Below, one piece after another: positions 6,141 through 57,228 of a DNA stretch of 64,000 nt. Numbering within the stretch: position 1 is the stretch's first letter; the number at the start of each line of letters is the position of its first letter. Under the pieces are notes generated by a model that saw nothing but the letters and a program-made list of their open reading frames with translations, was not told the origin of the DNA and did not search any database. The position numbers were made by a program, and so were the translations under genes. The stretch comes from Clostridium sp. CAG:510 (GTDB lineage Bacteria; Bacillota; Clostridia; Lachnospirales; Lachnospiraceae), in contig FR880848.1 in assembly GCA_000434615.1 (NCBI GenBank), forward strand, positions 39,429 to 103,428. The letters are read 5' to 3'.

Positions 6141-6153
6141 AGTCCGCTCCTCC

Positions 6154-7212: not shown

Positions 7213-7259
7213 ATTTTTATTCCTTTACCAACCGCAGCGGCATCACCGCCGCATTCTTT

Positions 7260-8399: not shown

Positions 8400-8422
8400 A
8401 GTTTTGTCCACCTTTCCTTGCA

Positions 8423-11998: not shown

Positions 11999-12085
11999 AG
12001 TTTCTCCTTTTATCCCGCAGACTCCTTGCAAAACGTCTGCACTCTTAAACGCCAAAAAATCTACTCGTTCTCATAAATACAACAT

Positions 12086-12105
12086 AAGCACTCCTAAGAG
12101 TGCTT
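12086..12105 (-). terminator. Hairpin just downstream of the dehydratase gene; a possible weak terminator or attenuator
   Basis: aagcactc-ctaa-gagtgctt forms a perfect 8-bp stem. On the minus-strand RNA it is followed by a U-rich but interrupted tract (auguuguauuuau). Confidence 0.35.
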
Positions 12106-12115
12106 ATTGTATCGT

Positions 12116-13108: not shown

Positions 13109-13173
13109 AAAGACCTCCTGGGGCAATCGTTTGCATTTGGCATAACCCACCTAAGTTACACCATATAAAGTGT

Positions 13174-23502: not shown

Positions 23503-23519
23503 AAAACCACTTTGGGAAC

Positions 23520-25429: not shown

Positions 25430-26469
25430 ACATTCTTTTTATGGTTAATCAGCCACTTTTTCCATTCGGGATATTCCTTGTTGGAATCCTTTAGCTTACA
25501 GGATAAAAAGGCTTCCACCTCCGGGCTTAACCAGTTGTTTCCCTCTGCATCGGTCCGGTTACGGAGGCTGGCATAGGTCGGCGTATCCAGCTCCGGTATA
25601 TCTCCCAGTGTCAGGAACGAATGTCCGTTATAGCAGTGGGAAATCGGACACCGGCAGCCCATGGCTTCAAAATGAAGCGGCTTGTCCGGGTTTTCGTAAA
25701 TATTATCGATTTTGCTGCCCGCATAGCACCTCGTCATATTTCCGGTGCCGAGATTGACATAAACGCTCCAGTCTCCGGCATAGCAGAACCGGTTCTGGTG
25801 CTCACCGAAAATAGTCTTCTTAAATGTAAACAGATTGGAGTCAAACTGCTCCCAGGTCTTGTAAAATTCCTCTTCCGGTAAGGCGGAATAAATGGGAATA
25901 TCCGGCTTGGCATCGTCTCTGGCAATCGTCACATGGCAATCGGCTCCCACATACTTCTTTGCCTCCGCGCGCAGTTCGTCAATATGCGGAATCAGTTCGT
26001 CATTGGGTGTTACCTCTAAGGTGAAAGAACAGCCCGCCTTACGCATCCGGTTGATGTTGTCAAAAAACAGTTCTGTGATTTTCAATCTGTGCTGCTCTAA
26101 ATAATGATAGGAAAACTTAAAGGAAAGCCGTTTTCTTAATTCTTCCGGGAATTCCTCGATTTCCTTAAATGCCTTAGTAATGGTTCCGTTTGTTACGATA
26201 AAAACATAGTGTCCCTCTTCTAAGAGTGCCTTTGCCACCTTGGGTAAATCCGGGCAGAGCAGAGTCTCCCCGCCGCCGCAAAGATTGATAAGGCAGGTGC
26301 CCCCCAGTCTTTTTTTCGACAATGCCCTGGCAATTTCTTCCGGGGAATGACCGATGGGTCTGATTTCGTCCTTCCATCTGTCCTTCATGGTAATGTAGCA
26401 GTAATGACACCGCAAGTTGCAAGTGGTAATGGGAACATAACATTCTACATATCTTTTTAATTTATCCAT
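25426..26469 (-). CDS. Radical SAM enzyme of unknown specificity, inside the glycan cluster
   Basis: YVPITTCNLRCHYCY carries the CxxxCxxC motif. GGGETLL is the glycine-rich SAM site. Additional Cys residues lie near the C-terminus (GCRCPISHCYNGH). The ATG at 26469 has a gggaga RBS; the track ORF starts 43 codons earlier, which overlaps the upstream gene implausibly. Confidence 0.7.
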   Translation of the reverse strand: MDKLKRYVECYVPITTCNLRCHYCYITMKDRWKDEIRPIGHSPEEIARALSKKRLGGTCLINLCGGGETLLCPDLPKVAKALLEEGHYVFIVTNGTITKAFKEIEEFPEELRKRLSFKFSYHYLEQHRLKITELFFDNINRMRKAGCSFTLEVTPNDELIPHIDELRAEAKKYVGADCHVTIARDDAKPDIPIYSALPEEEFYKTWEQFDSNLFTFKKTIFGEHQNRFCYAGDWSVYVNLGTGNMTRCYAGSKIDNIYENPDKPLHFEAMGCRCPISHCYNGHSFLTLGDIPELDTPTYASLRNRTDAEGNNWLSPEVEAFLSCKLKDSNKEYPEWKKWLINHKKNV

Positions 26470-39004: not shown

Positions 39005-40444
39005 TTATTCAATAATATACTGTACATCTTCTTTGTCATAGCAGGCAGCCACGGCTTTATTTACCCAGTCGCCGGTATCCGGAGTTAATGAAATTCCCTG
39101 CAGGATGCTGCTTTCATGTTCCTCCTCTTTTCGTACAACCACCACATGCGTATCCTCTGCAGTTTTAATCTCATGCAGAACCGAATCCCAGTAGGAAAAA
39201 TACTTCTGTGCGGTACCGTCCGCTATTTCTTTTATACATTTCACAGTCAGCATGTTTTCCGTGCCTGCCGCTATGCTTCCCCAAAAGACTCCCCCCCACA
39301 CAAGCATTCCTGCCGTAATAAATCCGCACAGAACGGTTCTTTTATTTCTTCCCACATTCCTGCACCACTGGGCAAAAAGAAGCAGAAACAGAAATGTTCC
39401 TATATATATCAGACAGTCATCAATGAAAAGGCATCTGTCCGGATAGTAGTTCTCACCATGTCCCAGCATAACGGGAAAAGCTACAGCCGTACCACCCGCA
39501 ACAATCAGAACTGCCAGTAGACCCAGATGATACAACCGTATACTCCTGTTCTCCAGCTTCACATACTTTAACATATACAGGAAAACCACCGCTATAACTG
39601 CCAGAAACGGCGTGTATTTCAGCAGATAATAGCCCCTGTGCACAACATGCTCTGCCGATAATGCAATTGCCTGTAAGATCTGGGCTGTACCGGCTGTGCC
39701 GTTATTTCGCACAAAATTTCCCGGTGCACAGGCATTTAGAAGCCCTCCGGCAAGAGAACCCGCAAAATACAGCCACGCCCTTTTTCCTTTTTTTTCAATC
39801 CATTCATATCCTATAAGCAAAAGTGCCATTTCACAATTTAAGGCAACCAGATTCAGTGCTCCGCCGCTTGTCAGGAAACCGGTCAGCACGGTCAGAACCG
39901 CATATCTTTTTTTACCGGTGTTAATATAACGGGCATCCCATATAATTCCCCAGAACATAAATGCCAGAATAAGCACATAGGATACAGCTGTACAGTACCA
40001 GTACATTGTTTCCGTATAATAATATAAGTCAAAAAAGCATACCAGCATAGCGGTTCCCAGAACAAGACCCTTTATCCGGGACTCAACTCCAAATATCTCT
40101 TTCATCATCACACGAACAAAAACAAGAAGTGTCACTATAAAAAAGAGAGTCGTCAGGAAAATCGTAATCTGATGTCCCGGCATTCCCCACCGCATGTACG
40201 GATTTATGGCATAGTTGAGAAAAGAGCCTGTATAAAAGCCACCCCATGTCTTAAAACGCCCCAATGTCAGTAACAGGGCACTGGCTGTAATACCTTTTCC
40301 CGATTTCTCCATTTCCCGGAGCACATCGCCAATTGTGGAAAAATCATCATTATACGGTACTGCGTAGAATGCCATCAATAGCACCGGCACTGTAATAATA
40401 GCAATAATTCCGATTAAAACCATATATTTCAGCTTATTTTTCAT
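39005..40444 (-). CDS. Polytopic membrane protein, GT-C-like glycosyltransferase or polymerase candidate
   Basis: 479 aa with about 12 TM segments. A DD motif lies in the first external loop (VPYNDDFSTIGDV). A C-terminal soluble domain is present. Confidence 0.5.
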   Translation of the reverse strand: MKNKLKYMVLIGIIAIITVPVLLMAFYAVPYNDDFSTIGDVLREMEKSGKGITASALLLTLGRFKTWGGFYTGSFLNYAINPYMRWGMPGHQITIFLTTLFFIVTLLVFVRVMMKEIFGVESRIKGLVLGTAMLVCFFDLYYYTETMYWYCTAVSYVLILAFMFWGIIWDARYINTGKKRYAVLTVLTGFLTSGGALNLVALNCEMALLLIGYEWIEKKGKRAWLYFAGSLAGGLLNACAPGNFVRNNGTAGTAQILQAIALSAEHVVHRGYYLLKYTPFLAVIAVVFLYMLKYVKLENRSIRLYHLGLLAVLIVAGGTAVAFPVMLGHGENYYPDRCLFIDDCLIYIGTFLFLLLFAQWCRNVGRNKRTVLCGFITAGMLVWGGVFWGSIAAGTENMLTVKCIKEIADGTAQKYFSYWDSVLHEIKTAEDTHVVVVRKEEEHESSILQGISLTPDTGDWVNKAVAACYDKEDVQYIIE

Positions 40445-40474: not shown

Positions 40475-41575
40475 TTATTTTTTACACAGTTCTTCGATAT
40501 AGTCCCTCCATTGCCGCACCACGGCTTCCGTGTTGGCAATGTCCTTGATTTTACGGGCTTCCCTGCCAAGTTTTTCCGCGAAATCCCTGTCCTCAATCAG
40601 CCGGTTCATGCCTGTAGCCAGGGCATCCGCATCCTTAATAGGCACCAGCAGTCCGTTTTTCTCATTTTCAATAAGTGTCGCAGGTCCGCCGCAGGGGCAG
40701 TCCGTTGCCACAATGGGAAGTCCCAGCGCCATGGCTTCCATCAGCGCATTAGGAAGCCCCTCCCAGTCGGAAGAAAAAGCAAACAACGCCGCATCGTTTA
40801 ATTTCTTTTCCAGCTCATCGCTGGCTCCCATCAGATGCACATACTCTTCTGCATGATTTTTTGCAATGCTCTTTTCCAGAAGCTCCTTCGTACCGTCATG
40901 GGAATCCCCGCCGTAAATTTCCAGCGTATAATCGGGATGCTTTTCATGCACCTTCACAAAGGCATCAATCAGAAGAAGCTGGTTCTTAAAGTCCACCAGT
41001 CTGCCGGACTGCACCACCGTTTTCCGTCTTTCTGCCGGTTCCGGTACCCCGATATACTTGTCATTGATGGGATTCAGGATGATTTTAGATTTTTTTTGTA
41101 TCTTTTTTGTAAAGAATTCCTTCGCTCCCACCGTCTGGAACACATTGCCTGCTGCCGTGGGATACAAAAGAGGAATTAAAATTTTATCCCGCTTTCCTAC
41201 ATAGTGCAGATAGGGGTTGGTCCGTACGGAAACAATCACCGGTAGCCGCATAAAGTAGGTCGCCATCAGCGCCCGGTAGTTGGCTTTCTGGGCAAAGGCA
41301 ATCAGGATATCCGGCTTTTCCTTTTTCAAAAACTTTTTCAGATTGGAAATCCGCATAAAAAACTGCTGCTTTGTGGAAGCCCTTTCCTGTTTTTCCGTCA
41401 GTCCCACATGCACCCTGTGAATTCTTTCGTCTATGGCAAATTCGTTTTCCGCCGTCCATTCCGTGGCGATATAAACATCATACCCTTCCTGTACCAGACG
41501 GTTTGCCAGCGTGGTGACCACCCGCTCCGCTCCGCCCTGTTCCAGGCAATTTAAATGAAATACTATTTTACGCAT
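40475..41575 (-). CDS. GT4 glycosyltransferase
   Basis: MRKIVFHLNCLEQGGAERVV... ...SDWEGLPNALMEAMALGLPIVATDCPCGGPATLI. Confidence 0.75.
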   Translation of the reverse strand: MRKIVFHLNCLEQGGAERVVTTLANRLVQEGYDVYIATEWTAENEFAIDERIHRVHVGLTEKQERASTKQQFFMRISNLKKFLKKEKPDILIAFAQKANYRALMATYFMRLPVIVSVRTNPYLHYVGKRDKILIPLLYPTAAGNVFQTVGAKEFFTKKIQKKSKIILNPINDKYIGVPEPAERRKTVVQSGRLVDFKNQLLLIDAFVKVHEKHPDYTLEIYGGDSHDGTKELLEKSIAKNHAEEYVHLMGASDELEKKLNDAALFAFSSDWEGLPNALMEAMALGLPIVATDCPCGGPATLIENEKNGLLVPIKDADALATGMNRLIEDRDFAEKLGREARKIKDIANTEAVVRQWRDYIEELCKK

Positions 41576-41602: not shown

Positions 41603-42680
41603 TCATGAAAAAGCATTGATGCTTTCAATTACATACTCCTGCTCTTCTTCCGTCATACCGTTGTACAATGGAAGCGAAAGCACTGTTTCCGCATATTTTT
41701 CGGTAATTGGCAGAGAACCCTTTTTAATATTTAAATACCGGTAGGCCTCCGACAAATGCGGTGGTATAGGATAATGAATTATGGTGCCTATTTCTTTATT
41801 ATTAAGGTATTCAATTAGTTTTTCCCTCTCCTCACACCTGATTACAAACTGATGCCAGATATGTGTAGCCCCTTCCCTGATTTTTGGTAGCACTATCTTA
41901 GAATTCTTTAAGTTCTGCAGGTATCGTTCGCAGATATTTCTTTTTTCTTCTTCCAATTCCCGTATATGAGCCAATTTTACCCTGAGGAGTCCTGCCTGTA
42001 TTTCATCCAGTCTGGAATTAGTACCCACTACACGATTATAATATCTTTTTTCACTTCCGTAATTTCGAAATACTCTTACCTGTTCTGCCAGCATGGGATC
42101 GTCAGTCACAATTCCCCCTGCATCACCGAATGCTCCAAGGTTCTTTGATGGATAAAAAGAAAAGCATCCTATATCTCCGAAAGTCCCTGTCATCTTACCC
42201 TTAAAGCTGGCTCCATGTGACTGTGCACAGTCCTCCACGACCTTTAACCCGTATTTTCTTGCAACCTCCATAATCTCGTCCATACAGATGTACCACCAGG
42301 ATTGCCTTTGTTGCCGGTGTTATTTTTTCTTCCAGCTTGGAAGCATCTATATTGTAGTACTCATCCGGCTCCACAAAAACAGGGGTAGCTCCGTTAATGG
42401 TTATTCCCATTACACTGGCAATATAGGTATTGCCTTGTACAAGTACCTCATCTCCGATTCCGATGCCCAATACACGAAACGCAATCCATAAAGCATCTAA
42501 CCCACTGGCAAGACCTACACAATAACCTGCACCCACATATTCTGCAAATTCTCTTTCAAAACTGTCAACTTCTTTTCCCAGTACATACCAGCCTGACCTT
42601 AAAACTTCTAAAGCTTTCTTCTCAAATTCATCCTGATATTTATAGAAACCCAAATCCATTCTGTTTGGCATTATTTTCAT
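41603..42680 (-). pseudogene. DegT-family sugar aminotransferase (FdtB/QdtB-like) interrupted by a frameshift
   Basis: Two ORFs in different frames overlap at 42201-42283. The upstream one ends ...ILVVHLYG followed by out-of-frame junk. The downstream one begins MDEIMEVARKYGL...DCAQSHGA...CFSFYPSKNLGAFGDAGG.... Joined, they give a complete PLP-aminotransferase with the expected VVHLYG-x-x-x-MDEIM junction. Confidence 0.65.
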
Positions 42681-43108
42681 CGTTGTTTCTCCGTTGTATC
42701 ATTTATCAGATTAATAAACTCCTTGTAATCGCGAATATATTCCTGTGAATCGTAATACTCACTTGCAAGACAGAGCAAAACGGAATCTTCGCTAAAATCA
42801 TACATTTCTTTCCAGACCATATTGGGAAGATATATCCCCGTATGCGGTCTGTTCAGGGAAAAAACAGCTTCGTTTCCCTGTCCGTCCTTTATTTTTACCT
42901 TACTGGAACCCTTTACGTTAATCAGCACAAAACGACTTTTCCGGTTTGCATGCTGTCCGCGGACGACATTTTTTTCCGTTCCGTATATATAAAAAATTCG
43001 TTTTATTTCAAACGGAATATCCTTTAACCCTTCTACAATTACTAAATGACCTCTTTCATCACCATGCTGAGGAAATTCAAGCATCTGTACATCTGTATAA
43101 TTTTTCAT
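42677..43108 (-). CDS. fdtA: dTDP-4-keto-6-deoxy-D-glucose 3,4-ketoisomerase (FdtA/QdtA cupin)
   Basis: ...FPQHGDERGHL..IPFEIKRIFYIYG...RGQHANRKS..., ...VWKEMYDFSEDSVLLCLASEYYDSQEYIRDYKEF.... This closely parallels FdtA as I recall it (DSRGSL, PFSIKRVYYI, RGFHAHK, VWHEMHDFSSDCVMMVLASDYYDETDYIR). Confidence 0.75.
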   Translation of the reverse strand: MKNYTDVQMLEFPQHGDERGHLVIVEGLKDIPFEIKRIFYIYGTEKNVVRGQHANRKSRFVLINVKGSSKVKIKDGQGNEAVFSLNRPHTGIYLPNMVWKEMYDFSEDSVLLCLASEYYDSQEYIRDYKEFINLINDTTEKQR

Positions 43109-43123
43109 TCTGACTTCTCCGTT

Positions 43124-43645
43124 TTACTTTTCATATTCTTCATGCAGAAAACTGTACCACTTTAATGTTCGGTATTCACCCTCCATACATATGCAGTCTC
43201 TGAACTCTCCTTCATATGTAAACCCGCTTTTTTCATAAAAACGGATTGCACGTGTATTTTCTTTCAGGACGTTAAGATATATTCTGTGCATCCCCAGCTC
43301 CCGAAATCCCTTTTTTAATAATAATCTGGTGGCCTCAAATGCTGCCCCCGTACCTTGTGCACATCTGCGCATGCTAATGGCATATTCCGCATTTTTGTTT
43401 ATGAGATTTATATTTTTGAGACTGATGGTTCCCAGATACTCATCCTGTTCGTTCACTATCGCATAATGCAGACTCTTTCCGTTTTCTATTTTCTCTTCTG
43501 CATTGTCCGCTGTGCAAAATGCTATTGCCTCTTCCATCGTCACTTCCCCCATCTTCTTCTGAAAGCACTTTTGCAGTTCTTCATCATGCATCCATTCCAG
43601 CATCAGAGAGGCGTCTTTTTTTTGTAAATTTCGAAGTTGTATCAT
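43124..43645 (-). CDS. GNAT-family acetyltransferase, probably an amino-sugar N-acetyltransferase
   Basis: 173 aa. GNAT core RRCAQGTGAAFEATRLLL. Sits directly upstream of fdtA and the FdtB-like pseudogene. Confidence 0.65.
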   Translation of the reverse strand: MIQLRNLQKKDASLMLEWMHDEELQKCFQKKMGEVTMEEAIAFCTADNAEEKIENGKSLHYAIVNEQDEYLGTISLKNINLINKNAEYAISMRRCAQGTGAAFEATRLLLKKGFRELGMHRIYLNVLKENTRAIRFYEKSGFTYEGEFRDCICMEGEYRTLKWYSFLHEEYEK

Positions 43646-44583
43646 TCTTTTCTTTCCTCCGGGGAAATACCATCTTCTTCAATAATGTAGGCAGGACGCT
43701 TTCGGGACGCATCAAACGTTCTCCATAAATATTCCCCTAAAATCCCCAAAGTCATCATGATAATGCCGAAACTGAAAAGATTAAAAATAAACAGAGTGGT
43801 CCATCCTGATACCGCAATATGTCCTGAAATTTTGGCAATCAGAACCACAATTGCCCATATAACAGCCACTGCTATGGAAAAAGTACCTACTCCAAGAACT
43901 GCCGTAATGGGCAGGGAGGAAAAGCTAAATAAAGTATCCATCACCAGACGGATTTTCTTTTTCAATGTCCAACGGCTTTTACCGGCTGTCCTCGCCAGCC
44001 GGGTATAGTATATGACATCTGTCTTAAAACCGCTCCACAATATCTGACCGGTTAGTGCTGAATTTTTTTCATCAAGATTTTGCAAAACTGTGATAACTCT
44101 TTTATCTACCAGATAAACGTCAAATCCCCCTTTGGGCATATTGGGTAATGCACATTTTCGCACCAGTGAATAATAAAGATTGGCAAAAAAGGTCTGTTTT
44201 GGGGACTCCTGCCTTCCTTCTCTGACTGCCAGAACCACATTATTGCCTTTTTTCCAAGATTCAACCATTTCAAGAATAAGTTCCGTAGGTTCCTGTAAAT
44301 CTGCCGCTTTGACAACGGCACAATCACCCGTGCTATTGCATAATCCGCATAATATGGCCGCATGGGAACCAAAATTTCTGGATAAACTGATGATATGAAT
44401 ATGAGAATCCTTTTCTGCAAGCTCCCGCATAATTTCCCAGCTTTGATCCCGGGAGCCGTCATTTACCATGACAATTTCATATTCATAGTTAATCTTATCT
44501 ATAATTTTTTCTTTGATATCTGCATACAGAGAAAATAGATTCTCTTCATTATAGTACACAGGAATCACTATTGATAATTTCAT
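43642..44583 (-). CDS. GT2 polyprenyl-phosphate sugar synthase (GtrB/ArnC-like)
   Basis: LSIVIPVYYNEENL...VMVNDGSRDQS...two C-terminal TM helices. The ArnC/GtrB architecture. Confidence 0.75.
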   Translation of the reverse strand: MKLSIVIPVYYNEENLFSLYADIKEKIIDKINYEYEIVMVNDGSRDQSWEIMRELAEKDSHIHIISLSRNFGSHAAILCGLCNSTGDCAVVKAADLQEPTELILEMVESWKKGNNVVLAVREGRQESPKQTFFANLYYSLVRKCALPNMPKGGFDVYLVDKRVITVLQNLDEKNSALTGQILWSGFKTDVIYYTRLARTAGKSRWTLKKKIRLVMDTLFSFSSLPITAVLGVGTFSIAVAVIWAIVVLIAKISGHIAVSGWTTLFIFNLFSFGIIMMTLGILGEYLWRTFDASRKRPAYIIEEDGISPEERKE

Positions 44584-44634: not shown

Positions 44635-46602
44635 TTATTTGTTCTTTATATATAATCTGTAATTATACTTGCTTCCTTCTTCGTAGTAAAGGTCGGCCGT
44701 ACATGTATAATTTTTCAGAAAATACTCTTCCTTCCACGTATTGTTTCCAAAATAATAGGAAAGCGTATTCAAGGAATCGTCATTTACAAAAATACTGTCC
44801 GATTCTTCTATAAGATTAAAAATATAATCTACACATACCTGATTGGAGTACAGGATATCCGGCATATCCATTCCGAAATAACCCGTATTCCAGCCAAGAT
44901 AACTGTAAATTTCATCTATTCCCTCACCAAAGCCAACGGTATCTGCCGGTACTGCTTTTTTTACCTGCTCCGCAAATTGCTCGATTTTTTCCATATTTCT
45001 CTGTGATACATATGATTTCTGCTGCGCGATAAGTCTGACTGGAAATACAATTGCCATCATCAGCAGAACCGTTGCTATCCACGAAAACAATACACGATAA
45101 ATTCTATCCTTGGATTTTCCGGTTTTTTCCGCAATCCATCCCATTAAAATACCCATAACCGGTATAACTATGTACAGGCAATTTTGAGAAGCACGGTTGA
45201 CATAATACACCATCTGAATAGCAACCAGAATAATAGCCGCCGTCAAAATTTCTGTCTGGGAATCTGCCGTATTCTCAAAAAAACATCTTTTCATAACATA
45301 AGCCGTACATATAAGAATGATTGCAAGACATCCCATCCACGGGCTAAGCTGCACCGGCAGATTTACATACAGCAAATCTATGAAGTCCTGTTCGCTTCCC
45401 ACAAGTGGAAACAAAAAAGTCTTTATTGTCAGAAATTGACCTCCCGTCAAAAGGTTATAGGCTCCTACCATTCCATAGGCTCCCAGAAAAGACACTGGTA
45501 TTATGAAAAGTGCCCCCAAGCTGTGCAGCCACCATGTTTTCTGTATTATTTTCCATTTGCGGCACAATGCTGCAATGTAACCTCCCACAAATGCAAGCGT
45601 TACGGCAATTCCCGTTTCCACGTTCCATACGATGGAAAGAATGCATAATATAGTTCCTATAGCCACATACCAGCTATTATTCTTTTTATGTTTCGTTCCC
45701 CAGACGATATAAGCCAAAATAATTCCGCCAAAAAGAATACGGTGAGGAAACATTTGGCAATATATGGCAGTTCTTTCCCATACTACAAAAGAAGAAAGAC
45801 TGACTGCCGTCACAACCTTTATCCATGTGTGGGAAAAAAGACTGTCTACTACATAAAAACAACATGCTAATGTAACTCCGTCCAAAATTGCAAGCAGGGC
45901 AATAACCTTATCATAAGACACTCCCATGACTCTGGTAAACGGTAGCAAAAGCATACCGTAAAATCCATAAATACCGCTGTTTATCTCACTATAGGGCTGT
46001 AACTGATATATTTTATAAATAGAGTGATAATACGCATCAAAGTGAAACAAGTCTCCGTCAAATACATTGCCCCTGTAAAAAGCCCATACCGAAATGCCAA
46101 TCAGTGCAGCATATAATCCCATCATCAGAATAGACTTTTTATTCTTGTTTTCTCTCTGTCCGGCCTTATAAAAAAGCACTGCCATTGCTATAGCCATTAT
46201 AAGCAGCAATGCCTGAATAACGCGAGTCACTGTGTTTTGCGGAAAATAACCGTTAACGGTTCCCCAGATATACGGTTTTATAAAAATCCAGACAGTTACC
46301 GTTCCCAACATAAGAAACAGAAAACAGGAAACCCATTTTTCATTTATTTTGATGTAGAAATCATCAGGAACCACGTTCTCGTACACAGCATAGCTGATGC
46401 ATGCAATCAGTATGGCAATCACATAATACGCTATGTTTTTGCTTGATTTGTTCAACAGTTCTGTCCCGAGCGCCACTATCCCCCAAATAATTTCCAATAT
46501 CATCAATATGATACCATATACCAAATATCTAAAACTTTTTTTACTCATGTCCATTCCCTCATCATAGCTAAAACCATAAAATATCCTTTTTACTTTTCTC
46601 AT
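44635..46602 (-). CDS. Large polytopic membrane protein, GT-C-like glycosyltransferase candidate
   Basis: 655 aa (about 639 aa if it starts at the internal MDMSKK). A DD motif lies in the first external loop (VVPDDFYIK). A C-terminal soluble domain is present. Confidence 0.5.
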   Translation of the reverse strand: MRKVKRIFYGFSYDEGMDMSKKSFRYLVYGIILMILEIIWGIVALGTELLNKSSKNIAYYVIAILIACISYAVYENVVPDDFYIKINEKWVSCFLFLMLGTVTVWIFIKPYIWGTVNGYFPQNTVTRVIQALLLIMAIAMAVLFYKAGQRENKNKKSILMMGLYAALIGISVWAFYRGNVFDGDLFHFDAYYHSIYKIYQLQPYSEINSGIYGFYGMLLLPFTRVMGVSYDKVIALLAILDGVTLACCFYVVDSLFSHTWIKVVTAVSLSSFVVWERTAIYCQMFPHRILFGGIILAYIVWGTKHKKNNSWYVAIGTILCILSIVWNVETGIAVTLAFVGGYIAALCRKWKIIQKTWWLHSLGALFIIPVSFLGAYGMVGAYNLLTGGQFLTIKTFLFPLVGSEQDFIDLLYVNLPVQLSPWMGCLAIILICTAYVMKRCFFENTADSQTEILTAAIILVAIQMVYYVNRASQNCLYIVIPVMGILMGWIAEKTGKSKDRIYRVLFSWIATVLLMMAIVFPVRLIAQQKSYVSQRNMEKIEQFAEQVKKAVPADTVGFGEGIDEIYSYLGWNTGYFGMDMPDILYSNQVCVDYIFNLIEESDSIFVNDDSLNTLSYYFGNNTWKEEYFLKNYTCTADLYYEEGSKYNYRLYIKNK

Positions 46603-47948
46603 TGTTTATTTTTCAAAATATGATACGTTTCCCTGAGCATCAGGTACATGGCAATGTACACAAAGGGCATATTGTAAATCATGTACCGGGTCTGGGCAAA
46701 AATCAGCACGCCCACCACCGCTACATTGATAAGGGTGGAAAGCAGCACTAAGAATGCAAACCAGAATGCCGTCTGCTTTTTCTGTTTTCCCATTACAACT
46801 AAAAGCCCTATATAAACCGCACCGAATAAAACGTTATACCATACAAGCAGCGGATGTGCCTTAGAAACCGTATTGCACAATCCCACCAGCATATTGTCCC
46901 CCGCTACCTGCAGTACCTTGAACAATCTATGGGACATAAGGGCGGAAATCATGGCGCTGTTTATATCGTCAAAAGCCAGTTCCCTCTCTTCTTTTTCATA
47001 AGAAAAGTTCTCATCGATATACGCATAAAACGAAGGATTTACAATGCCGAATGCCAGTAAATCGTAGTGGTCGGAATAATGGTTGTAACGGGACAGCCAG
47101 TTGCCTTCGGCGGCTTTGTAGGTATAACCCTTCTCCTCCGCCTCCGTCATAATATCGGTAAAGAGCTGTCTTAAGCCCCCGTCTTCCAGATATTCTGCGT
47201 CCTCCATGCCGGAGCTGTAAAAAAGCGTAATAACCATGGCGGAAGAATCCGAAGTATGGCGCATGGCGGTACCCCTCAGGCTGAAATTATACAGTACATC
47301 CAGTCCAAATGCCAGAAAAACAGCAAGAATCACACTGCCCCATGCCAGAAGCATTTTCTTTACCGGTATCTTCTGCGCCGTCCACAGAAAGAAATAAAGG
47401 GCGCCCATAATAAGCACAACAATATACATCTGCTTTCTGGTGCTGATAAGCAGCGCACCGATAAGCATGCTTGTGATAAGTCTGCTGTTTTTATAATCTG
47501 TACTGTAAGCAGACAATTCGGTCAGAAGCAGGGTAAACAGCGGAATGGCAATCCCTTCCGAACAGATTTCATTGCAGTAAGTGGCATGTCTTGCAGCCAC
47601 CACACGGCATAAGAATACCACTGCCGTCTGAAAGAACACCAGCACACATGCCGAAAATACACCGCCCTGTACTTTTTCGCATACCGTTTTTGTCAGTGCA
47701 TACATAGACACCGCCCACAAAAGGCACTGTACAAAAACCACTGCCTTGAAATAAAATCCCGCTCCGAAAAGCAGGCGGAAAAAGGCCAGAAACAGCGGAT
47801 AAAACGGCTCTCTTCCGTAAGTAAAATCAATATAGCTCTGGGAATCCGCCGATAGGTTCACGCCGTCTAAAAAAAACAAAAAAAGATAAAACAGAAGGCA
47901 GAAGGCGGGGAGCAATATCTCGGGTAATACTGTCTTTTTCTTTGTCAT
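46599..47948 (-). CDS. Polytopic membrane protein of unknown function, GT-C-like candidate
   Basis: 449 aa. The N-terminal half has TM helices, then a roughly 130-aa soluble loop, then C-terminal TM helices. 4-nt overlaps on both sides. Confidence 0.5.
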   Translation of the reverse strand: MTKKKTVLPEILLPAFCLLFYLFLFFLDGVNLSADSQSYIDFTYGREPFYPLFLAFFRLLFGAGFYFKAVVFVQCLLWAVSMYALTKTVCEKVQGGVFSACVLVFFQTAVVFLCRVVAARHATYCNEICSEGIAIPLFTLLLTELSAYSTDYKNSRLITSMLIGALLISTRKQMYIVVLIMGALYFFLWTAQKIPVKKMLLAWGSVILAVFLAFGLDVLYNFSLRGTAMRHTSDSSAMVITLFYSSGMEDAEYLEDGGLRQLFTDIMTEAEEKGYTYKAAEGNWLSRYNHYSDHYDLLAFGIVNPSFYAYIDENFSYEKEERELAFDDINSAMISALMSHRLFKVLQVAGDNMLVGLCNTVSKAHPLLVWYNVLFGAVYIGLLVVMGKQKKQTAFWFAFLVLLSTLINVAVVGVLIFAQTRYMIYNMPFVYIAMYLMLRETYHILKNKQ

Positions 47949-48883
47949 ACTCTGTTTTCCTTTTTTTGTCTGTGTACCTGATTTAACTGAAACTCAAAGT
48001 CCCTCCGGTTTTTCTTGGCAAGATCGGAAAGAATCATGCCCGAGAAAAATGCCTGTACCGCCGCCAGTTCAATAAAGCAGGATACAAACAGAGTGGGGAA
48101 ATGATTGACCAGACCGATGCGTAAGAACTCAACGAAAACCGGAATAAACATGGCCACCGCCACTACGGTAAGAATTGCCGCAAGCAGGGTAAAAAAGCCA
48201 AACGGCTTGTAGTTTTTGTATAACTGCACAATGGTTTTCAATACCTTAAAGCCGTCGGAATAGGTGCTCAATTTGGACACGCTTCCCTCCGGTCTGTCAC
48301 GGTAGTCCACCACGATATTTTCCAACTGCATGTTGTTATACACCGCATGGATGGTCATTTCCGTTTCGATTTCAAAGCCCTTTGACAAGACCGGAAATGT
48401 CTTTACAAATTCATAGCTGAATGCCCGGTAGCCGGTCATAATATCCCGGATATTGCAGGCAAAAAGCCGGTTGATAACCCCTCTCACCAGAGAGTTCCCC
48501 AGATTGTGAAAGGGTCTTTTGTTCTCCTGAAAATAAGTGGAAGAAAGCCTGTCCCCCACTACCATGTCTGCATTTTTCTTTAAAACGGCATCCACCATTT
48601 CCCGGGCATTGTTCAGAGGATAGGTATCGTCCCCATCCACCATGATATAGCATTCTGCCTCGATTTCCCTAAACATCCTTCGGATGACATTTCCTTTTCC
48701 CTGCTGGTATTCATAGCGCACCACAGCACCGGCTTCCCTTGCAATTTCATCCGTACCGTCCACGGAATTGTTGTCATATACATAAACAACTGCTTCCGGG
48801 AGTGCCGCTTTCGCATCCTCCACTACCTTTTTAATTGTCTGTGCTTCATTATAACAGGGAATCAGTACCGCTATTTTATCCAT
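47945..48883 (-). CDS. GT2 polyprenyl-phosphate sugar synthase (GtrB-like), the third copy
   Basis: MDKIAVLIPCYNEAQTI...VYDNNSVDGT...MVDGDD... with two C-terminal TM helices. The ATG at 48883 has a gggaga RBS; the track ORF starts 16 codons earlier. Confidence 0.75.
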   Translation of the reverse strand: MDKIAVLIPCYNEAQTIKKVVEDAKAALPEAVVYVYDNNSVDGTDEIAREAGAVVRYEYQQGKGNVIRRMFREIEAECYIMVDGDDTYPLNNAREMVDAVLKKNADMVVGDRLSSTYFQENKRPFHNLGNSLVRGVINRLFACNIRDIMTGYRAFSYEFVKTFPVLSKGFEIETEMTIHAVYNNMQLENIVVDYRDRPEGSVSKLSTYSDGFKVLKTIVQLYKNYKPFGFFTLLAAILTVVAVAMFIPVFVEFLRIGLVNHFPTLFVSCFIELAAVQAFFSGMILSDLAKKNRRDFEFQLNQVHRQKKENRV

Positions 48884-48903
48884 TATAATCTCCCAATCTG
48901 TCT

Positions 48904-49725
48904 TTATTTTCTGAGCACCCATTTCAGCCATATACCGTAGGCGGCGGAGCGGCCTTTCCTGAGTGCCTTGGACAGAAACTGTCCCACCTTTCCGATGGAA
49001 AGCCTGTCTGCATTTTTACGGAGCAGATATACATGCTCCTCAAAGTATGCCTTTTTCTCTTTCGACATGACCTTTCCGGTGTTGGAATCTTCCCGGAGCA
49101 TAAAATAATTCAGCTTCTCCTTTAAGACGTCTACTTTGCCAAAGGGCGCCATGGACATCCAGAGATCAAAATCCAGAATGTAGCGGTATGCCGGATCGAA
49201 ACCACCCGCCTTTTCAAAAACACTCTTGCGGAACATGACCGCACAGGGCATTCCGAAATAGTTGTTGTAAATCATGGACTTCCGCGCCAGTTTTTTTCCG
49301 TCCTGTATGCCTTTTTTCGGATACCTTCCGAAAATACCCAGCTTTTTTCCCTCCCGGTTAATCATGATGCTGTCATTGATTGTCATCACTATGTCCGGAT
49401 CTTTCTGCATAGCTTTGCTTTCCATTTCAATGCTTTCCGGCACCAGTCTGTCGTCTGCACAGATTAACTTGATATATTCGCCTTTTGCCAGTTCCACACA
49501 ACGGTTCCAGTTGCCCGCCATACCAAGATTTTTTTCATTCCGGTAAAGGTGTATTCTGTCGTCCTTTATACTCTCCACAATCGCCGCCGTACTATCCGTG
49601 GATGCATCGTCCACCACGACAATCTCTATATTTTTATAAGTCTGCTCTAACAGACTTTCCAGTGTTCCTTTAATATCCTTTTCGTTGTTATAAGCCGGAA
49701 TACAGATACTTACCAGGTCAGTCAT
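48904..49725 (-). CDS. GT2 glycosyltransferase
   Basis: VSICIPAYNNEKDI...VVVDDASTDST...ICADDR. Confidence 0.7.
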   Translation of the reverse strand: MTDLVSICIPAYNNEKDIKGTLESLLEQTYKNIEIVVVDDASTDSTAAIVESIKDDRIHLYRNEKNLGMAGNWNRCVELAKGEYIKLICADDRLVPESIEMESKAMQKDPDIVMTINDSIMINREGKKLGIFGRYPKKGIQDGKKLARKSMIYNNYFGMPCAVMFRKSVFEKAGGFDPAYRYILDFDLWMSMAPFGKVDVLKEKLNYFMLREDSNTGKVMSKEKKAYFEEHVYLLRKNADRLSIGKVGQFLSKALRKGRSAAYGIWLKWVLRK

Positions 49726-53029: not shown

Positions 53030-53779
53030 TCAGCCCTTCATTTTCACGGCATAATGCTTGAAGGATGCCATAATATATTCTTTGATATGTCCGAAAACAT
53101 TCCGCTTTACCGGCGTTTCCTTCATAAACTCTTCATAGGAAAGAAGCTGTTCCTTGTGTTCTTCAAACAGTTCTTCGTAGTGTTTCATTTCTTCGTCACT
53201 GGTTTCATTGATATGCACCACCATGGTCGTGGTTCCTTCTGACGGCTCTAAACTTTTCTGCATAAGAAAAGAAATCGGATAAAAAGTCATGCCCCTCCAG
53301 AGATAAGGGCCCTTGCCGAAACCATCGGTGATTTTCGTAAAGCCGTTTTCCTTTAAGGCTTTCAAGGTCTTTCCGTCATAGGAATGTGCCGGTGCCATGA
53401 AAATGTCGGTTTCAATGCCGTTTTCGTTTAATATCTGCTTTCCCAAAGCAATCATATTGTTCTGTTTTTCATAGGAAAAACCAGCAAATTCGGAAAAATG
53501 GTTCAGTGGAAAAAGTCCGCCGTGCTTTGTCCCGTACAGATGACGGTATCCGTGCATGGCAAGAACACAGCCTTCTTCTTTTAATTTTTTCATTCTGTCG
53601 AAAAAGTCCGGAACATCTTCCGTTTTATGCAGATGGGCATCCCTGCAGTCCGGAACAATGCCAAGAAGGGGCTTTATGTTGTATTTATCCAGAATGGTCT
53701 TGAAAGCTTCAAACTTTTCCCAGTCCATATCGGGTGTGATGTCATCCATACGCACTGCAATTTTCATTCTAACCACCAT
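53030..53779 (-). CDS. DUF2334-like / polysaccharide-deacetylase-fold protein
   Basis: MKIAVRMDDITPDM...HGYRH... resembles DUF2334 (CE4-like fold). Probable start at MKIAV (ATG 53767). Confidence 0.45.
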   Translation of the reverse strand: MVVRMKIAVRMDDITPDMDWEKFEAFKTILDKYNIKPLLGIVPDCRDAHLHKTEDVPDFFDRMKKLKEEGCVLAMHGYRHLYGTKHGGLFPLNHFSEFAGFSYEKQNNMIALGKQILNENGIETDIFMAPAHSYDGKTLKALKENGFTKITDGFGKGPYLWRGMTFYPISFLMQKSLEPSEGTTTMVVHINETSDEEMKHYEELFEEHKEQLLSYEEFMKETPVKRNVFGHIKEYIMASFKHYAVKMKG

Positions 53780-53806: not shown

Positions 53807-54727
53807 TTAAGCAAGTACATCTCCCGCCTGCAGTTCCTTTGCCGACTCATATTTCTTTATGAGCAGGGAACCGTCCACCGTCCGGACAATGGGATGTCCG
53901 TCAAATACATCAATAACTTCTCCGGGCGCATAGGCGGAAAAATCTATCATTTCATCAAAGGGCTGTGCTTCCCACACCGTAACCTTTTCTTCTCCTACGT
54001 AAGCAAAAGCTCCCGGGAAAGGCGCTGCCACGCCGCGGATGAGGTTATAAATCTCTCTGGTTCTGCCGTGGAAATCGATTTTTCCGTCCGCCGCCGTACG
54101 CTTGTTGTACCAGGAGTCAAAATCCTTAGAGTCCGTCCTTACGGATATATTTCCCTCTTTATAAGCCGCAAGCAGCTTCTTTATCAGATTTTTGGAGCAA
54201 ATCATGTTCTTGTACTGCGCCGTGCGGATATCGTCCTGAGGGGTTATGGAAAACATCTCCGTGGCAAATACATTAGGGCTGTCCGCCTTTTCGTCGTAGC
54301 AAAACAGGTTTAAGTTAAACCGGGTATCCCCTAAAATAATGGACCAGTTTAGCGGAGATCGTCCCCTGCCGAAGGGCAGATAACCTGCATTGCCGTGAAA
54401 GCCGTAAATGCCATAAGCAAATCTGTCTAACACCGACTTCGGAATAAGGCGCTGCCAGCCCATGGAAATGCCGATGTCAAATTCGTTCTCTGCGAAGAAT
54501 TTCTGCGTTTTTTCATCCGTCAGAAAATAGCTGTCCGCTTCGTGCACCGGGATGCCGTATTTTTCGGTAAGCCCCGACAATCCCTTATAACCGGACACCT
54601 GGTTTTTCTTCGTCACCTCCGGGCTGATGGTCACCACCAGATCTACCGGACAGATGTGCTCCTGTATGAAATTCACGATGTTTTCAGAGGTATCCTTCAC
54701 TCCGAAAACGACTACTTTATACTTCAT
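53807..54727 (-). CDS. Sugar N-formyltransferase (Fmt/ArnA-N-domain family)
   Basis: MKYKVVVFG...GIYGFHGNAGYLPFGRGRSPLNWSIILGDT fits the formyl_trans_N signature (H...SLLP..RG..P.NW). A C-terminal domain follows. The ATG at 54727 has a gggaga RBS. Confidence 0.65.
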   Translation of the reverse strand: MKYKVVVFGVKDTSENIVNFIQEHICPVDLVVTISPEVTKKNQVSGYKGLSGLTEKYGIPVHEADSYFLTDEKTQKFFAENEFDIGISMGWQRLIPKSVLDRFAYGIYGFHGNAGYLPFGRGRSPLNWSIILGDTRFNLNLFCYDEKADSPNVFATEMFSITPQDDIRTAQYKNMICSKNLIKKLLAAYKEGNISVRTDSKDFDSWYNKRTAADGKIDFHGRTREIYNLIRGVAAPFPGAFAYVGEEKVTVWEAQPFDEMIDFSAYAPGEVIDVFDGHPIVRTVDGSLLIKKYESAKELQAGDVLA

Positions 54728-54750
54728 AGTATCTCCCACTTTGCTATTAC

Positions 54751-54912
54751 GCAGCATTCTGCATACTCATTCTGCGTTCCTGATACCATCCACGCAGACG
54801 CGCTTGCGCTTAGAAATCACCGTAGCGGTACATAAGATGCCACAGAACGGCATCTAAGTACCGACGGTGATTAAAAGTCTGCTTTGGATGGTATGCAGAA
54901 TGCAGAATGCAG
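54751..54912. repeat. About 160-nt intergenic region made of nested inverted repeats (a long imperfect hairpin)
   Basis: Outer arms cattctgcatac...accatcc and ggatggtatgcagaatg. Middle arms aatcaccgtagcggtac and gtaccgacggtgatt. Inner stem gatgcc-acagaac-ggcatc. Confidence 0.5.
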
Positions 54913-54921
54913 AGTTACTTC

Positions 54922-55896
54922 CTATAGATTCTCTTTGTACCAGTCAATGGCAAGGTTAATGCCCTTCGCGAAGTCGTATTCCGGGTCATAACCCAGAAGT
55001 TCACGGGCCTTGGTGATGTCCGCATTGGAGTCACGGATATCGCCTGCACGGTTGGGACCGAAGTTCGGCTCCACATCCTTGCCCAGTGCCTTGCACAAAT
55101 CATGGTAAACGTCGATTAAATATTCTCTGCCGCCGGCACCGATATTGAAAGCTTCGCCTGCCGCATCGGAGGATGCCAGACATGCCTTTAAGTTGGCTTC
55201 GATGACATTGTCTACGTAAGTAAAATCACGGGACTGTTTGCCGTCGCCGTTGATGGTAGGCACTTCCCCGTTCATAAGCTGCTTGATAAACTTAGGGATT
55301 ACCGCTGCATACATGCCGTTGGGGTCCTGACGTCTGCCGAATACGTTGAAATAACGCATACCGTAGGTGTCCAGTCCGTACAGTACTTTATACAGTCTGC
55401 CGTACTCTTCGTCCACGCGCTTGGTCAGCGCATAAGGAGAAAGCAGATGTCCTTCGTGTCCTTCCTTCTTGGGCAGTACCGGGTGGTCGCCGTATACAGA
55501 GGAGGAAGAAGCATAAACGAACTTCTTTACCCCGTTCTGACGGGAAGCTTCCATCATGTTTAAGGTGCCGCGGATATTGATTTCCTCATATAAAAGAGGC
55601 ATTTCAATACTTCTGGGAACACTGCCCCATGCAGCCTGGTTCAGCACATAGGTAACACCCTTTGTGGCTTCCATACAGGTGTCCAGATCCCGGATGTCTC
55701 CCTTGATAAAGGTGAATTTCGGGTTCTTGGTGAGAGGTTCGATGTTCTCATATTTACCGGTGGAAAGGTTGTCCAGACATCTTACGGTATAGCCTAACTC
55801 TAAAACGGCTTCACAGATATTGGAGCCGATAAAGCCCGCACCGCCGGTTACTAAAAATACGCTGTCTTCATCAAATTTTAAATTACGAAATCCCAT
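54922..55896 (-). CDS. UDP-HexNAc(A) C4-epimerase (TviC/WbpP-like SDR)
   Basis: FLVTGGAGFIGSN...FIKGDIRD...NQAAWGSVPRS...ASSSSVYGDHP...SPYALTK...RYFNVFGRRQDPNG...INGDGKQSRDF.... Collinear with TviC as I recall it. Confidence 0.8.
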   Translation of the reverse strand: MGFRNLKFDEDSVFLVTGGAGFIGSNICEAVLELGYTVRCLDNLSTGKYENIEPLTKNPKFTFIKGDIRDLDTCMEATKGVTYVLNQAAWGSVPRSIEMPLLYEEINIRGTLNMMEASRQNGVKKFVYASSSSVYGDHPVLPKKEGHEGHLLSPYALTKRVDEEYGRLYKVLYGLDTYGMRYFNVFGRRQDPNGMYAAVIPKFIKQLMNGEVPTINGDGKQSRDFTYVDNVIEANLKACLASSDAAGEAFNIGAGGREYLIDVYHDLCKALGKDVEPNFGPNRAGDIRDSNADITKARELLGYDPEYDFAKGINLAIDWYKENL

Positions 55897-55911: not shown

Positions 55912-57228
55912 TTATAATCTCCAGTAAATGAAATCGCCGGCTTCATATTCTTTTCTGTCGAAAATACCCTTGATATCCAGGAATACCTTCTGCTTGTGCT
56001 CCGGCTTGTAGAAGCCTGCAATATCCTCTTTCTTTAAGGATAAGAACTGAGTATGGGAAACGGCAATCAGCACGGCATCCATATCCTTTACTTCCTCCAT
56101 GGTTCCGAAGGTAATGCCGTAAAGGCGCTTTGCTTCGTCTGCATCGGCAGCCGGGTCTACCACAAGAGGAGTAATGCCGTACTCTGCCAGCTCGTTGTAA
56201 ATATCGATAACCTTGGTGTTTCTGGTATCCGGGCAGTTTTCCTTGAAGGTAAAGCCTAAGATTGCCACTCTGGCGTTCTTTACCGGGATGTCCGCCTTAA
56301 TCAGGTTTTTCACCAGACTTTCTGCCACATACTTGCCCATATCATCGTTGATACGGCGTCCGGAAAGAATAATCTGGGAATGATAACCGAGCTGTTCTGC
56401 CTTGTAGGTCAGGTAATAAGGGTCAACACCGATGCAGTGTCCGCCTACCAGACCGGGATAGAATTTAAGGAAGTTCCACTTGGTTCCCGCTGCCTTTAAT
56501 ACGGACTGGGTATCAATGCCCATTTTATTGAAAATAATGGATAATTCGTTCATGAAAGCGATATTGATATCTCTCTGGCTGTTTTCAATAACCTTGGCAG
56601 CTTCCGCAACCTTGATGGAGTCTGCACGGTAAACACCGGCTTCTACAACCAGTTCATATACGTTGGCAATTTCTTCCAGAGTCTCCGCATCCATACCGGA
56701 TACAATCTTGGTAATGGTTTCCAGACGGTGTACCTTGTCGCCCGGGTTAATTCTTTCGGGAGAGTAACCAATCTTAAAGTCAACGCCGCACTTTAAGCCG
56801 GATTCCTTCTCTAAGATAGGAACGCAGATATCTTCGGTAACGCCGGGATATACGGTGGATTCAAATACGACGATGGAGCCCTTGGTCAGGTTCTGTCCTA
56901 AAATCCGGCTGGCGCCTTCTACCGGAGTAAGGTCCGGAGTATGGTCGGGATTTACCGGTGTGGGTACTGCCACAATATGGAATTTGGCTTCTTTTAACTT
57001 GGAAGGATCTGCTGTAAAATCCACCTTGGTTTCCTTGATGACATCGTTGCCGACTTCGTTGGTCGGGTCCACACCGCTCTTATACAGTTCGATTTTCTTT
57101 GCATTCAGGTCGAAGCCCACTACCTGGATTTTTCTGGCAAAGGCAACCGCAATCGGCATGCCTACATAGCCAAGGCCTACTAATGATAATTTTTCTTCAC
57201 CGCTTAAAAGTTTTTCGTACAAGCTCAT
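55912..57228 (-). CDS. UDP-N-acetylhexosamine 6-dehydrogenase (TviB/WbpO/WecC family)
   Basis: LSLVGLGYVGMPIAV (NAD-binding site), GGHCIGVDP (catalytic Cys). 438 aa. Confidence 0.8.
   Translation of the reverse strand: MSLYEKLLSGEEKLSLVGLGYVGMPIAVAFARKIQVVGFDLNAKKIELYKSGVDPTNEVGNDVIKETKVDFTADPSKLKEAKFHIVAVPTPVNPDHTPDLTPVEGASRILGQNLTKGSIVVFESTVYPGVTEDICVPILEKESGLKCGVDFKIGYSPERINPGDKVHRLETITKIVSGMDAETLEEIANVYELVVEAGVYRADSIKVAEAAKVIENSQRDINIAFMNELSIIFNKMGIDTQSVLKAAGTKWNFLKFYPGLVGGHCIGVDPYYLTYKAEQLGYHSQIILSGRRINDDMGKYVAESLVKNLIKADIPVKNARVAILGFTFKENCPDTRNTKVIDIYNELAEYGITPLVVDPAADADEAKRLYGITFGTMEEVKDMDAVLIAVSHTQFLSLKKEDIAGFYKPEHKQKVFLDIKGIFDRKEYEAGDFIYWRL

Follow-up and report, generated by a model that had tools for sequence, protein, structure and literature searches.

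What happens to a sugar pathway when the gene for its central enzyme is found in two pieces, and which sugar, on which polymer, is then at stake? The question is raised by a 64,000-nucleotide (nt) stretch of contig FR880848.1 (assembly GCA_000434615.1, forward-strand positions 39,429 to 103,428) from Clostridium sp. CAG:510, a member of the Lachnospiraceae. The whole stretch is called here the window, and all coordinates are positions in it. At 41603-43645, entirely on the minus strand, lies a cassette in which a GNAT acyltransferase and a 3,4-ketoisomerase of the FdtA/QdtA family accompany a DegT-family aminotransferase distributed over two overlapping open reading frames (ORFs). An earlier note on this DNA had read the cassette as an inactivated 3-amino-3,6-dideoxyhexose branch, which is upheld: a QdtB-like gene is broken by a deletion. 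This deletion is a real, single and very recent event that affected one lineage of a commensal common in the gut, and of the three causes that the earlier note had offered for the split (recent loss, phase variation, or an error of sequencing or assembly) recent loss is the only survivor.

One gene in two frames

The four ORFs of the cassette, and that of a family 2 glycosyltransferase (GT2) next to them, were confirmed on the minus strand, the order of transcription from 44583 to 41603 being GT2, GNAT, FdtA-family protein and then the two aminotransferase ORFs. The first of the latter (42201-42680, 159 residues) matches the Pfam profile DegT_DnrJ_EryC1 at positions 4-124 (E=1.9e-38), and the second (41603-42283, 226 residues) at positions 128-359 of 360 (E=1.6e-67). 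Only profile positions 125-127 fall between the two pieces, whose frames overlap at 42201-42283. No single polypeptide here carries the full-length DegT domain, which is divided over the two frames. The ORFs do not match different, non-contiguous proteins, an outcome that would have spoken against the initial reading; being consecutive stretches of one profile, they read as contiguous parts of one protein.

The break falls exactly at VVHLYG|MDEIM, within the conserved region where it had been placed. At the junction the first frame reads CAT CTG TAT GGA CGA G.. (HLYGR..) and the second ATG GAC GAG ATT ATG (MDEIM), while intact relatives read across it as VVHLYGQASNMDEIM. When the junction was compared with that of related strains (alignment A1), all intact contigs (10/10) carried an extra 17 nt, their allele being CTG-TATGGAC-AGGCATCCAA-TATGGAC-GAG, which codes for HLYGQASNMDEIM, against CTG TATGGAC GAG in the window. 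The gene accordingly measures 1095 nt when intact and 1078 nt in the window. The missing 17 nt correspond to one copy of the 7-bp repeat TATGGAC plus the 10 nt of unique sequence between the copies, and the junction (42278-42284, minus strand) is the sole copy that remains. The loss takes out Gln135-Asn138 and shifts the frame, so that the N-terminal fragment consists of native residues 1-134 followed by a 25-residue out-of-frame tail and a stop, whereas the C-terminal part holds native residues 139-364 in the +1 frame. What had been described as a frameshift is thus a shift of frame indeed, caused by a 17-nt microhomology deletion and not by a single-base change; the signature is that of slipped-strand or microhomology-mediated deletion, with no homopolymer slip.

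Reality, frequency and age of the deletion

Could the split have been created on the way from the cell to the database, the organism's own aminotransferase being intact? The window comes from a metagenome-derived genome, and the gene is intact in every contig that was retrieved without regard to the allele, as would be expected of an artefact of sequencing or assembly. However, the exact 159-residue product, frameshifted tail included, is present on 21 contigs, which stem from several sequencing runs and were built with different assemblers (SPAdes-type, MEGAHIT-type and Logan; ERR321096, ERR321097, ERR209091, SAMEA2042363, ERZ501299/308/311, ERZ1309906/1311355). Moreover, a 7-bp repeat is far below any assembly k-mer, and a loss of 17 nt is atypical for Illumina reads. 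An artefact is therefore very improbable. In the deletion contigs listed, identity to the window amounts to 99.86-100% across as much as 6.5 kb, and the N-terminal fragment has been deposited exactly, as CDA68060.1 of Clostridium sp. CAG:510.

The intact allele is by far the commoner one. The exact FdtA protein of the window is found in some 2,000 blocks of an index of public assemblies, and in all of 10 long human-gut metagenome contigs that encode it the next gene specifies a single aminotransferase of 364 residues. The exact sequence of a neighbouring 655-residue membrane protein led to nine further long contigs, with an intact aminotransferase in 9/9, and the matches from JGI were intact in 3/3. 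In the allele-unselected sample as a whole (n=22, that is, 19 contigs found through neighbouring proteins and the 3 from JGI, all nearly identical and from gut metagenomes) the 364-residue enzyme was intact in 22/22. In terms of frequency, approximately 19 contigs carry the fragment, against 993 with the exact FdtA protein.

The age of the event is best seen in contig L103 (SAMEA1906540), which has the intact gene and, over 13,968 bp, is separated from the window by one single-nucleotide polymorphism (SNP; 48569) and the 17-nt indel, the sole gap in the alignment; recent loss is what this pair of sequences supports. The remaining intact contigs show 44-238 SNPs relative to the window, or 6 in the case of the 2.4-kb contig L111. 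The carriers of the deletion, on their side, form one near-identical group. Independent truncation alleles were sought in the 90% protein cluster of the N-terminal fragment and none was found; the cluster otherwise held the deletion allele with another start codon and products below full length, taken as cuts at contig ends. A near-identical yet intact sister, a single group of carriers and the lack of any other truncation allele in that cluster are the grounds on which a single recent event is concluded.

The same observations bear on a reversible phase-variation switch of the decoration, an explanation suggested by the direct repeats that flank the deletion and by the frequent targeting of surface-glycan genes by such switches. 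Nevertheless, no homopolymer or tandem tract of the kind that marks contingency loci is present at the junction, the carriers belong to one lineage instead of being spread over different backgrounds, and slippage cannot restore the gene, because the deletion took away a copy of the repeat as well as 10 nt of unique sequence. Phase variation is on these grounds extremely improbable, the deletion being reversible only by recombination with an intact allele.

The contigs of species-representative genomes were also scanned for either allele as an exact pattern, with 0 matches, and a protein-based scan of the species representatives gave a best aminotransferase identity of 87%. Since there is no pattern match and no relative above this value, the GTDB representative of the species seems to be without this locus.

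Which sugar: aminotransferase, isomerase and acyltransferase

The intact aminotransferase has QdtB (3frk, E=4.6e-119) as its best match in the PDB, enzymes of the ArnB, PseC and WecE types obtaining far lower scores (PDB and NCBIfam). Its closest relatives are thus the aminotransferases acting at C3 of 3-keto-6-deoxyhexoses linked to deoxythymidine diphosphate (dTDP). The motif SFYPSKNLG of the window aligns with fsfypaKnlg of 3frk and contains the lysine that binds pyridoxal phosphate (PLP); it sits in the C-terminal fragment.

The isomerase (42677-43108, 143 residues) is intact and matches the FdtA family over almost its entire length (PF05523, E=9.9e-48, profile positions 2-129 of 131). Structures of FdtA, QdtA and WlaR are retrieved at E=1e-27 to 2.2e-36, among them 7n67 (E=2.2e-36), QdtA 4zu7 (2.5e-34) and FdtA 2pa7 (6.3e-29). 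In its motif RGQHANRK, H53 aligns with the first His of rgaHaH in 7n67 and of rgyHsH in QdtA, reportedly the catalytic histidine (His49 in FdtA; Davis et al., 2007). Two further positions, occupied by Y and R in QdtA 4o9e and by R and H in 4zu7, presumably influence the stereochemistry of the product. The window isomerase has Arg and Lys there, and for this reason 3-amino-3,6-dideoxygalactose (Fuc3N) and 3-amino-3,6-dideoxyglucose (Qui3N) cannot be told apart from the sequence. The product class proposed at the outset, a 3-amino-3,6-dideoxyhexose, is thus sustained by the matches to QdtB and to FdtA/QdtA, the choice between the Fuc3N and Qui3N types being the part that the letters do not decide.

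The third member of the cassette (43124-43645, 173 residues) has a GNAT fold, with a match to Acetyltransf_3 in Pfam (E=8.2e-22). The NCBIfam model for PseH recognizes it at E=8.6e-20, with 71 bits against a cut-off of 93, and among PDB entries the best match is SpeG (1.9e-17), followed by PseH (4ri1, 1.5e-8) and, marginally, by FdhC (5kta, 2.1e-3). Its position in the cassette suggests that it would be the N-acyltransferase of the nucleotide-linked 3-amino sugar, the acyl group being likewise putative. The Pfam matches agree in full with the ketoisomerase, the GNAT and the split DegT aminotransferase that had been recognized from the letters.

If this is the pathway, the sugar might still be made, either because both fragments are translated and reassemble or because another aminotransferase steps in. 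The second ORF has its ATG precisely where the two frames join, preceded at a distance of 9 nt by GGTGG; the window has a second DegT-family gene (7260-8423); and the deletion lineage persists in human guts. On the other hand, the four residues are lost right after the HLYG strand, inside the large PLP domain, the first fragment carries its 25-residue nonsense tail, and the second product predicted by the gene caller begins 30 residues later, without the aspartate of VVEDCAQ. As for the second DegT gene, a PseB-like dehydratase and a PseH-like GNAT are encoded 4-5 kb away from it, and this company points to an aminotransferase acting at C4 in another pathway. Continued production of the sugar by either means is thus improbable, and we retain the reading of a lost amination step.

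A conserved module in related genomes

The company kept by the aminotransferase was surveyed in 80 loci of species-representative genomes, selected for an aminotransferase 73-87% identical to the intact protein. Most belong to Lachnospiraceae (Acetatifactor, Roseburia, Butyrivibrio), with some from Treponema, Succinivibrio, Selenomonadaceae and Synergistales. Beside the aminotransferase gene, a GT2 gene of the GtrB type was present in 59/80, FdtA in 57/80, a GNAT in 20/80 and a family 4 glycosyltransferase (GT4) in 2/80, and a GtrA-like gene (PF04138) adjoined the cassette in 33/80. The usual order is FdtA, GtrB-like GT2, a variable slot, aminotransferase and then the GtrA-like protein.

The slot is occupied by exchangeable genes. 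Where it was inspected, the interval between GT2 and aminotransferase included a GNAT homologue, a QdtC-like protein with a left-handed beta-helix (LbH), or a QdtF-like formyltransferase. The LbH protein is closest to QdtC (3fs8, E=1.9e-25) and often comes with a MaoC dehydratase, and the formyltransferase is homologous over its full length to QdtF, a TDP-3-aminoquinovose N-formyltransferase with ankyrin repeats (4xcz, E=5e-95). In a further variant, two FemAB-like GNATs fill the slot. The intervals in which the genes for N-acyl transfer are swapped include L022:6695-7972, L024:6846-7990, L026:5790-8029 and L076:7180-7995, and in some relatives the acyltransferase is encoded downstream and not in the slot. 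Since these are known kinds of N-acyltransferase for 3-amino sugars, the slot supports both the assignment of the pathway and the role proposed for the GNAT.

Aminotransferases with 75-79% identity are encoded in metagenome-assembled genomes of Treponema, Succinivibrio, Anaerovibrio, Selenomonadaceae and Synergistales (L039, L055, L059, L062, L065, L068, L073, L074, L078 and L081), often with GtrB-like and FdtA genes alongside, those examined being from rumen or gut. This distribution suggests that the module has been transferred between phyla.

Two side observations concern the closest sequences. In L021, the closest relative at the species level (87%), an extra membrane protein of 494 residues is encoded between the GNAT and FdtA genes (6019-7503); with its weak similarity to Alg9-like family 22 glycosyltransferases (E=0.001), it is another GT-C-like candidate. 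In L006 (1161-4474), a contig with the intact allele, the two membrane-protein genes that precede the cassette were called with 452 and 637 residues, versus 449 and 655 in the window, which indicates another small strain-level change in the locus.

A proposed route from nucleotide sugar to lipid carrier

The GT2 that opens the cassette in the window (43642-44583, minus strand, 313 residues; Glycos_transf_2, E=4.9e-23) is predicted to be a polyprenyl-phosphate glycosyltransferase of the GtrB/ArnC/PgfS kind. Residues 2-302 align with GtrB of sll0501 (5ekp, E=1.2e-53), C-terminal membrane helices included, and residues 2-309 with ArnC at E of about 1e-31. The NCBIfam models for PgfS (E=6.4e-70, over 1-305) and ArnC (E=4.6e-41) match as well, both under their equivalog cut-offs. 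Gene linkage, in the 59/80 loci mentioned above, suggests that its donor would be the sugar of the cassette; its predicted acceptor is undecaprenyl phosphate.

Two membrane proteins are candidates for the subsequent transfer from lipid to acceptor. The first is the polytopic protein of 655 residues encoded next to the GT2 (44635-46602, minus strand). In Pfam and NCBIfam, under strict or relaxed settings, neither this protein nor the 449-residue protein beyond it gave a match, apart from a weak one to Wzy_C for the latter. A model of the 655-residue protein was obtained with AlphaFold2 on a 10-sequence alignment (mean predicted local distance difference test score, pLDDT, 74.7; predicted template-modelling score, pTM, 0.77) and compared with the PDB using Foldseek. 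The top 13 matches were all enzymes of the GT-C fold, including DPY19 (E=3.9e-5), AglB, PglB, STT3, ArnT (E=2.9e-3), AftA, EmbB and ALG3. The gene adjoins the GtrB-like gene in the window, and in L021 a homologue with 67% identity is found 1.6 kb upstream. The second candidate, of a GtrC-like kind, is the DUF6056/GT_STM0557_N protein (39005-40444, minus strand, 479 residues; PF19528, E=6.5e-15), encoded two genes downstream. It has weak homologues near the cassette in 8/80 loci, and in L021, L045, L066 and L091 these immediately precede the GtrB-like gene. A transferase of GT-C fold is thus likely to be encoded nearby. Strong support from the synteny, together with the full-length alignment with GtrB and ArnC and the GT-C model, favours the carrier mechanism of ArnC/ArnT type proposed in the earlier note, whose identification of the GT2 and of its membrane neighbour is borne out by the PDB alignment and by the structure matches, respectively.

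A different destination for the sugar can be envisaged. Cytoplasmic Leloir glycosyltransferases, such as the GT4 encoded directly after the aminotransferase in the same gene string (40475-41575, minus strand; Glycos_transf_1, E=9.4e-34), would incorporate it into the repeat unit, and the GtrB-like and GT-C genes would belong to a hexose decoration that has nothing to do with it. This would conform to the characterised Fdt and Qdt pathways, which supply cytoplasmic glycosyltransferases, and to the uridine diphosphate (UDP)-sugar donors of the characterised GtrB, ArnC and PgfS enzymes. Against it stands the position of the GtrB-like gene, inside the cassette in 59/80 relatives and usually between FdtA and the aminotransferase, together with the GtrA-like gene that follows in 33/80 and the conservation of the GT4 in only 2/80. 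We regard the Leloir route as rather unlikely, and the lipid-carrier route is the one followed below.

The proposed pathway and its weak points

Taken together, the data can be accommodated in the following sequence of events. RmlA and RmlB, encoded elsewhere, would supply dTDP-4-keto-6-deoxyglucose, which the cassette would turn into a dTDP-3-acylamido-3,6-dideoxyhexose. The GtrB-like enzyme would move the acylamido sugar to undecaprenyl phosphate, the lipid-linked sugar would then be flipped across the membrane, and a GT-C enzyme, either the 655-residue neighbour or the DUF6056 protein, would attach it to a polymer of the cell surface as a side decoration. Replication slippage between the two TATGGAC repeats deleted the 17 nt and split residues 1-134 from the part with the PLP lysine. 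In the deletion lineage amination would be lost, no 3-amino sugar would be made and the decoration would be absent, the backbone polymer being kept. We consider this explanation as a whole, from cassette and lipid-carrier decoration to slippage deletion and lost decoration, to be probable.

Several points weigh against it. With respect to the enzymes, the second HxH position of the isomerase is occupied by Asn (N55) in the window and in 57/57 relatives examined, all of them linked to a GtrB-like gene, whereas the solved FdtA, QdtA and 7n67 proteins have His there; the H-A-N isomerases may form a distinct clade. SpeG and PseH are the proteins that the GNAT resembles most, and in 5 related loci a GNAT is accompanied by an LbH acyltransferase; the substrate of the GNAT is for these reasons not certain. 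Pfam and tblastn searches of the window found no rmlA, rmlB or gtrA (for the GtrA-like flippase, neither a PF04138 match nor a tblastn match), so these functions must be encoded elsewhere. No enzyme of the GtrB family is known to use a dTDP-sugar donor. The GT-C assignment comes from a medium-confidence model with template-modelling (TM) scores of 0.27-0.43. With respect to the deletion, the evidence consists of assembled contigs, in which heterogeneity within a sample is not visible. The window, too, is a metagenome-species assembly from MetaHIT, as recognized from the exactly matching proteins deposited as Clostridium sp. CAG:510, and several of the deletion contigs are re-assemblies of MetaHIT runs, which makes the number of independent hosts uncertain.

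Comparison with known systems

The Qdt pathway of Thermoanaerobacterium thermosaccharolyticum and the Fdt pathway of Aneurinibacillus thermoaerophilus lead to the dTDP-linked N-acetyl derivatives Qui3NAc and Fuc3NAc, respectively, by means of the same set of isomerase, PLP-dependent C3-aminotransferase and N-acyltransferase. The window departs from them in having a GNAT in place of an LbH acyltransferase, an H-A-N isomerase in place of an H-x-H one and a GtrB-like gene within the cassette, in addition to the broken aminotransferase of this lineage. For the GNAT there is a precedent in FdhC of Acinetobacter nosocomialis, which N-acylates dTDP-3-amino-3,6-dideoxy-galactose, although the window protein is closer to SpeG and PseH.

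A parallel in gene content is offered by wxc region 3 of Xanthomonas campestris B100, which is needed for the side branches of N-acetylated aminofucose (FucNAc) on the O-antigen and comprises wxcK (aminotransferase), wxcL (GT2), wxcM (isomerase/acetyltransferase), wxcN (small membrane protein) and wxcO (PMC4878081). WxcL has been counted as a GT2 (PMC13133917). Mutants in wxcK and wxcN lose the branch and keep the rhamnan backbone, which is even lengthened (PMC4878081), and it is by analogy with them that the deletion lineage would be expected to be without decoration but with its backbone. Like the window, the region combines genes for a 3-amino-6-deoxyhexose with those for a GT2 and for membrane proteins, serving a side branch whose addition does not depend on the backbone. 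The two differ in that the Xanthomonas genes act on a Gram-negative O-antigen and include an LbH-isomerase fusion, whereas the window would concern a Gram-positive-type Lachnospiraceae surface polymer and has a GNAT. The likeness is one of gene content, sequence comparison having been limited to WxcM-like PDB entries.

The combination of a GT2 that loads a polyprenyl phosphate with a GT-C transferase is also found in ArnC/ArnT, which modify lipid A with 4-amino-4-deoxy-L-arabinose (L-Ara4N), in GtrA/GtrB/GtrC, which glucosylate O-antigens, and in the Pgf system of Streptococcus mutans. The donor of ArnC is, like that predicted for the window, an N-acylated amino sugar. In contrast to these systems, the predicted donor of the window is linked to dTDP and not to UDP, and the window has no gtrA. 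Its acceptor could be either a polysaccharide or a protein, the latter as in Pgf. Combining Fuc3NAc or Qui3NAc with GtrA/GtrB in a search of the literature returned only surveys of O-antigens.

Other genes of the locus

A scan for promoters and terminators found nothing above background inside the cassette, and no convincing terminator was found between the aminotransferase, GT4 and DUF6056 genes. For this reason, and because of their close spacing, a polar effect of the premature stop on the GT4 and DUF6056 genes is possible.

Upstream of the cassette, a second GT2 of the polyprenyl-phosphate type, AglJ-like (47945-48931, E=6.6e-63), is followed by the 449-residue membrane protein with the weak Wzy_C match (46599-47948), and a second DUF6056 protein is encoded at 16562-18070. 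To judge from its gene content, there seems to be more than one system for decoration through a lipid carrier in the locus. Still further upstream are genes for a TviB-like dehydrogenase (55912-57228), a TviC-like epimerase (54922-55896), an ArnA-N-like formyltransferase (53807-54757, E=6.2e-37) and a DUF2334 deacetylase-like protein (53030-53779); an amino-sugar partner for the formyltransferase is not obvious in the vicinity. An Arn-like L-Ara4N pathway drawing on the aminotransferase of the cassette was considered for this region and rejected, the short-chain dehydrogenase/reductase being TviC-like (E=2.4e-83) and the aminotransferase far closer to QdtB than to ArnB.

At the other end of the window, the interval 7260-13150 contains the second DegT gene (E=1.6e-90), a GNAT gene (11411-12055) and a gene for a PseB/CapD-like dehydratase (12116-13150), a combination that suggests a separate pathway for a 4-amino-4,6-dideoxy sugar. 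Genes for ABC transporters of the Wzm/Wzt type (22201-24362 and 25426-27535) stand next to those for a radical SAM protein and pyruvyl transferases, and these genes assign the 55-kb gene string, at least in part, to an ABC-transporter-dependent glycan pathway. A family 6 glycosyltransferase gene (GT6; 29560-30378, PF03414, E=5.2e-25) adjoins one for a GT11 fucosyltransferase-like protein (30397-31317, PF01531, E=2e-22). Since such a pair builds structures of the ABO blood-group type, the polymer may mimic a host glycan.

Significance

The pseudogene described here is an ordinary strain-level loss of a surface-glycan decoration, in which pressure from phages or from the immune system may be reflected. 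The host organism is a prevalent but uncultured commensal, and its deletion lineage and the near-identical intact sister, both present in human guts, could reveal the role of the decoration in colonisation, phage sensitivity and antibody recognition.

The conserved module is a more interesting lead than the pseudogene. With its interchangeable acyltransferase, the Fdt/Qdt, GtrB and GtrA module is a new addition to the known three-component decoration systems. A broader proposal, whose chances we judge to be evenly balanced, is that it represents a widespread, uncharacterised module, mainly of Lachnospiraceae from gut and rumen but closely copied in Treponema, Succinivibrio and Selenomonadaceae, in which a GtrB-family enzyme loads a dTDP-derived 3-N-acyl-3,6-dideoxyhexose onto undecaprenyl phosphate. 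Its acyl slot would be swappable (GNAT, QdtC-like LbH protein with or without MaoC, QdtF-like protein or FemAB-like pair), its isomerases would form the H-A-N clade, and the deletion and intact lineages would serve as an isogenic pair. From the conserved linkage of Fdt/Qdt, GtrB and GtrA genes across many Lachnospiraceae, one would expect a donor in which undecaprenyl phosphate carries a 3-acylamido-3,6-dideoxyhexose whose acyl group is interchangeable. If this is true, the donor range of three-component glycosylation systems would be wider than it appears at present, and would extend to a donor class not yet demonstrated for the GtrB family.

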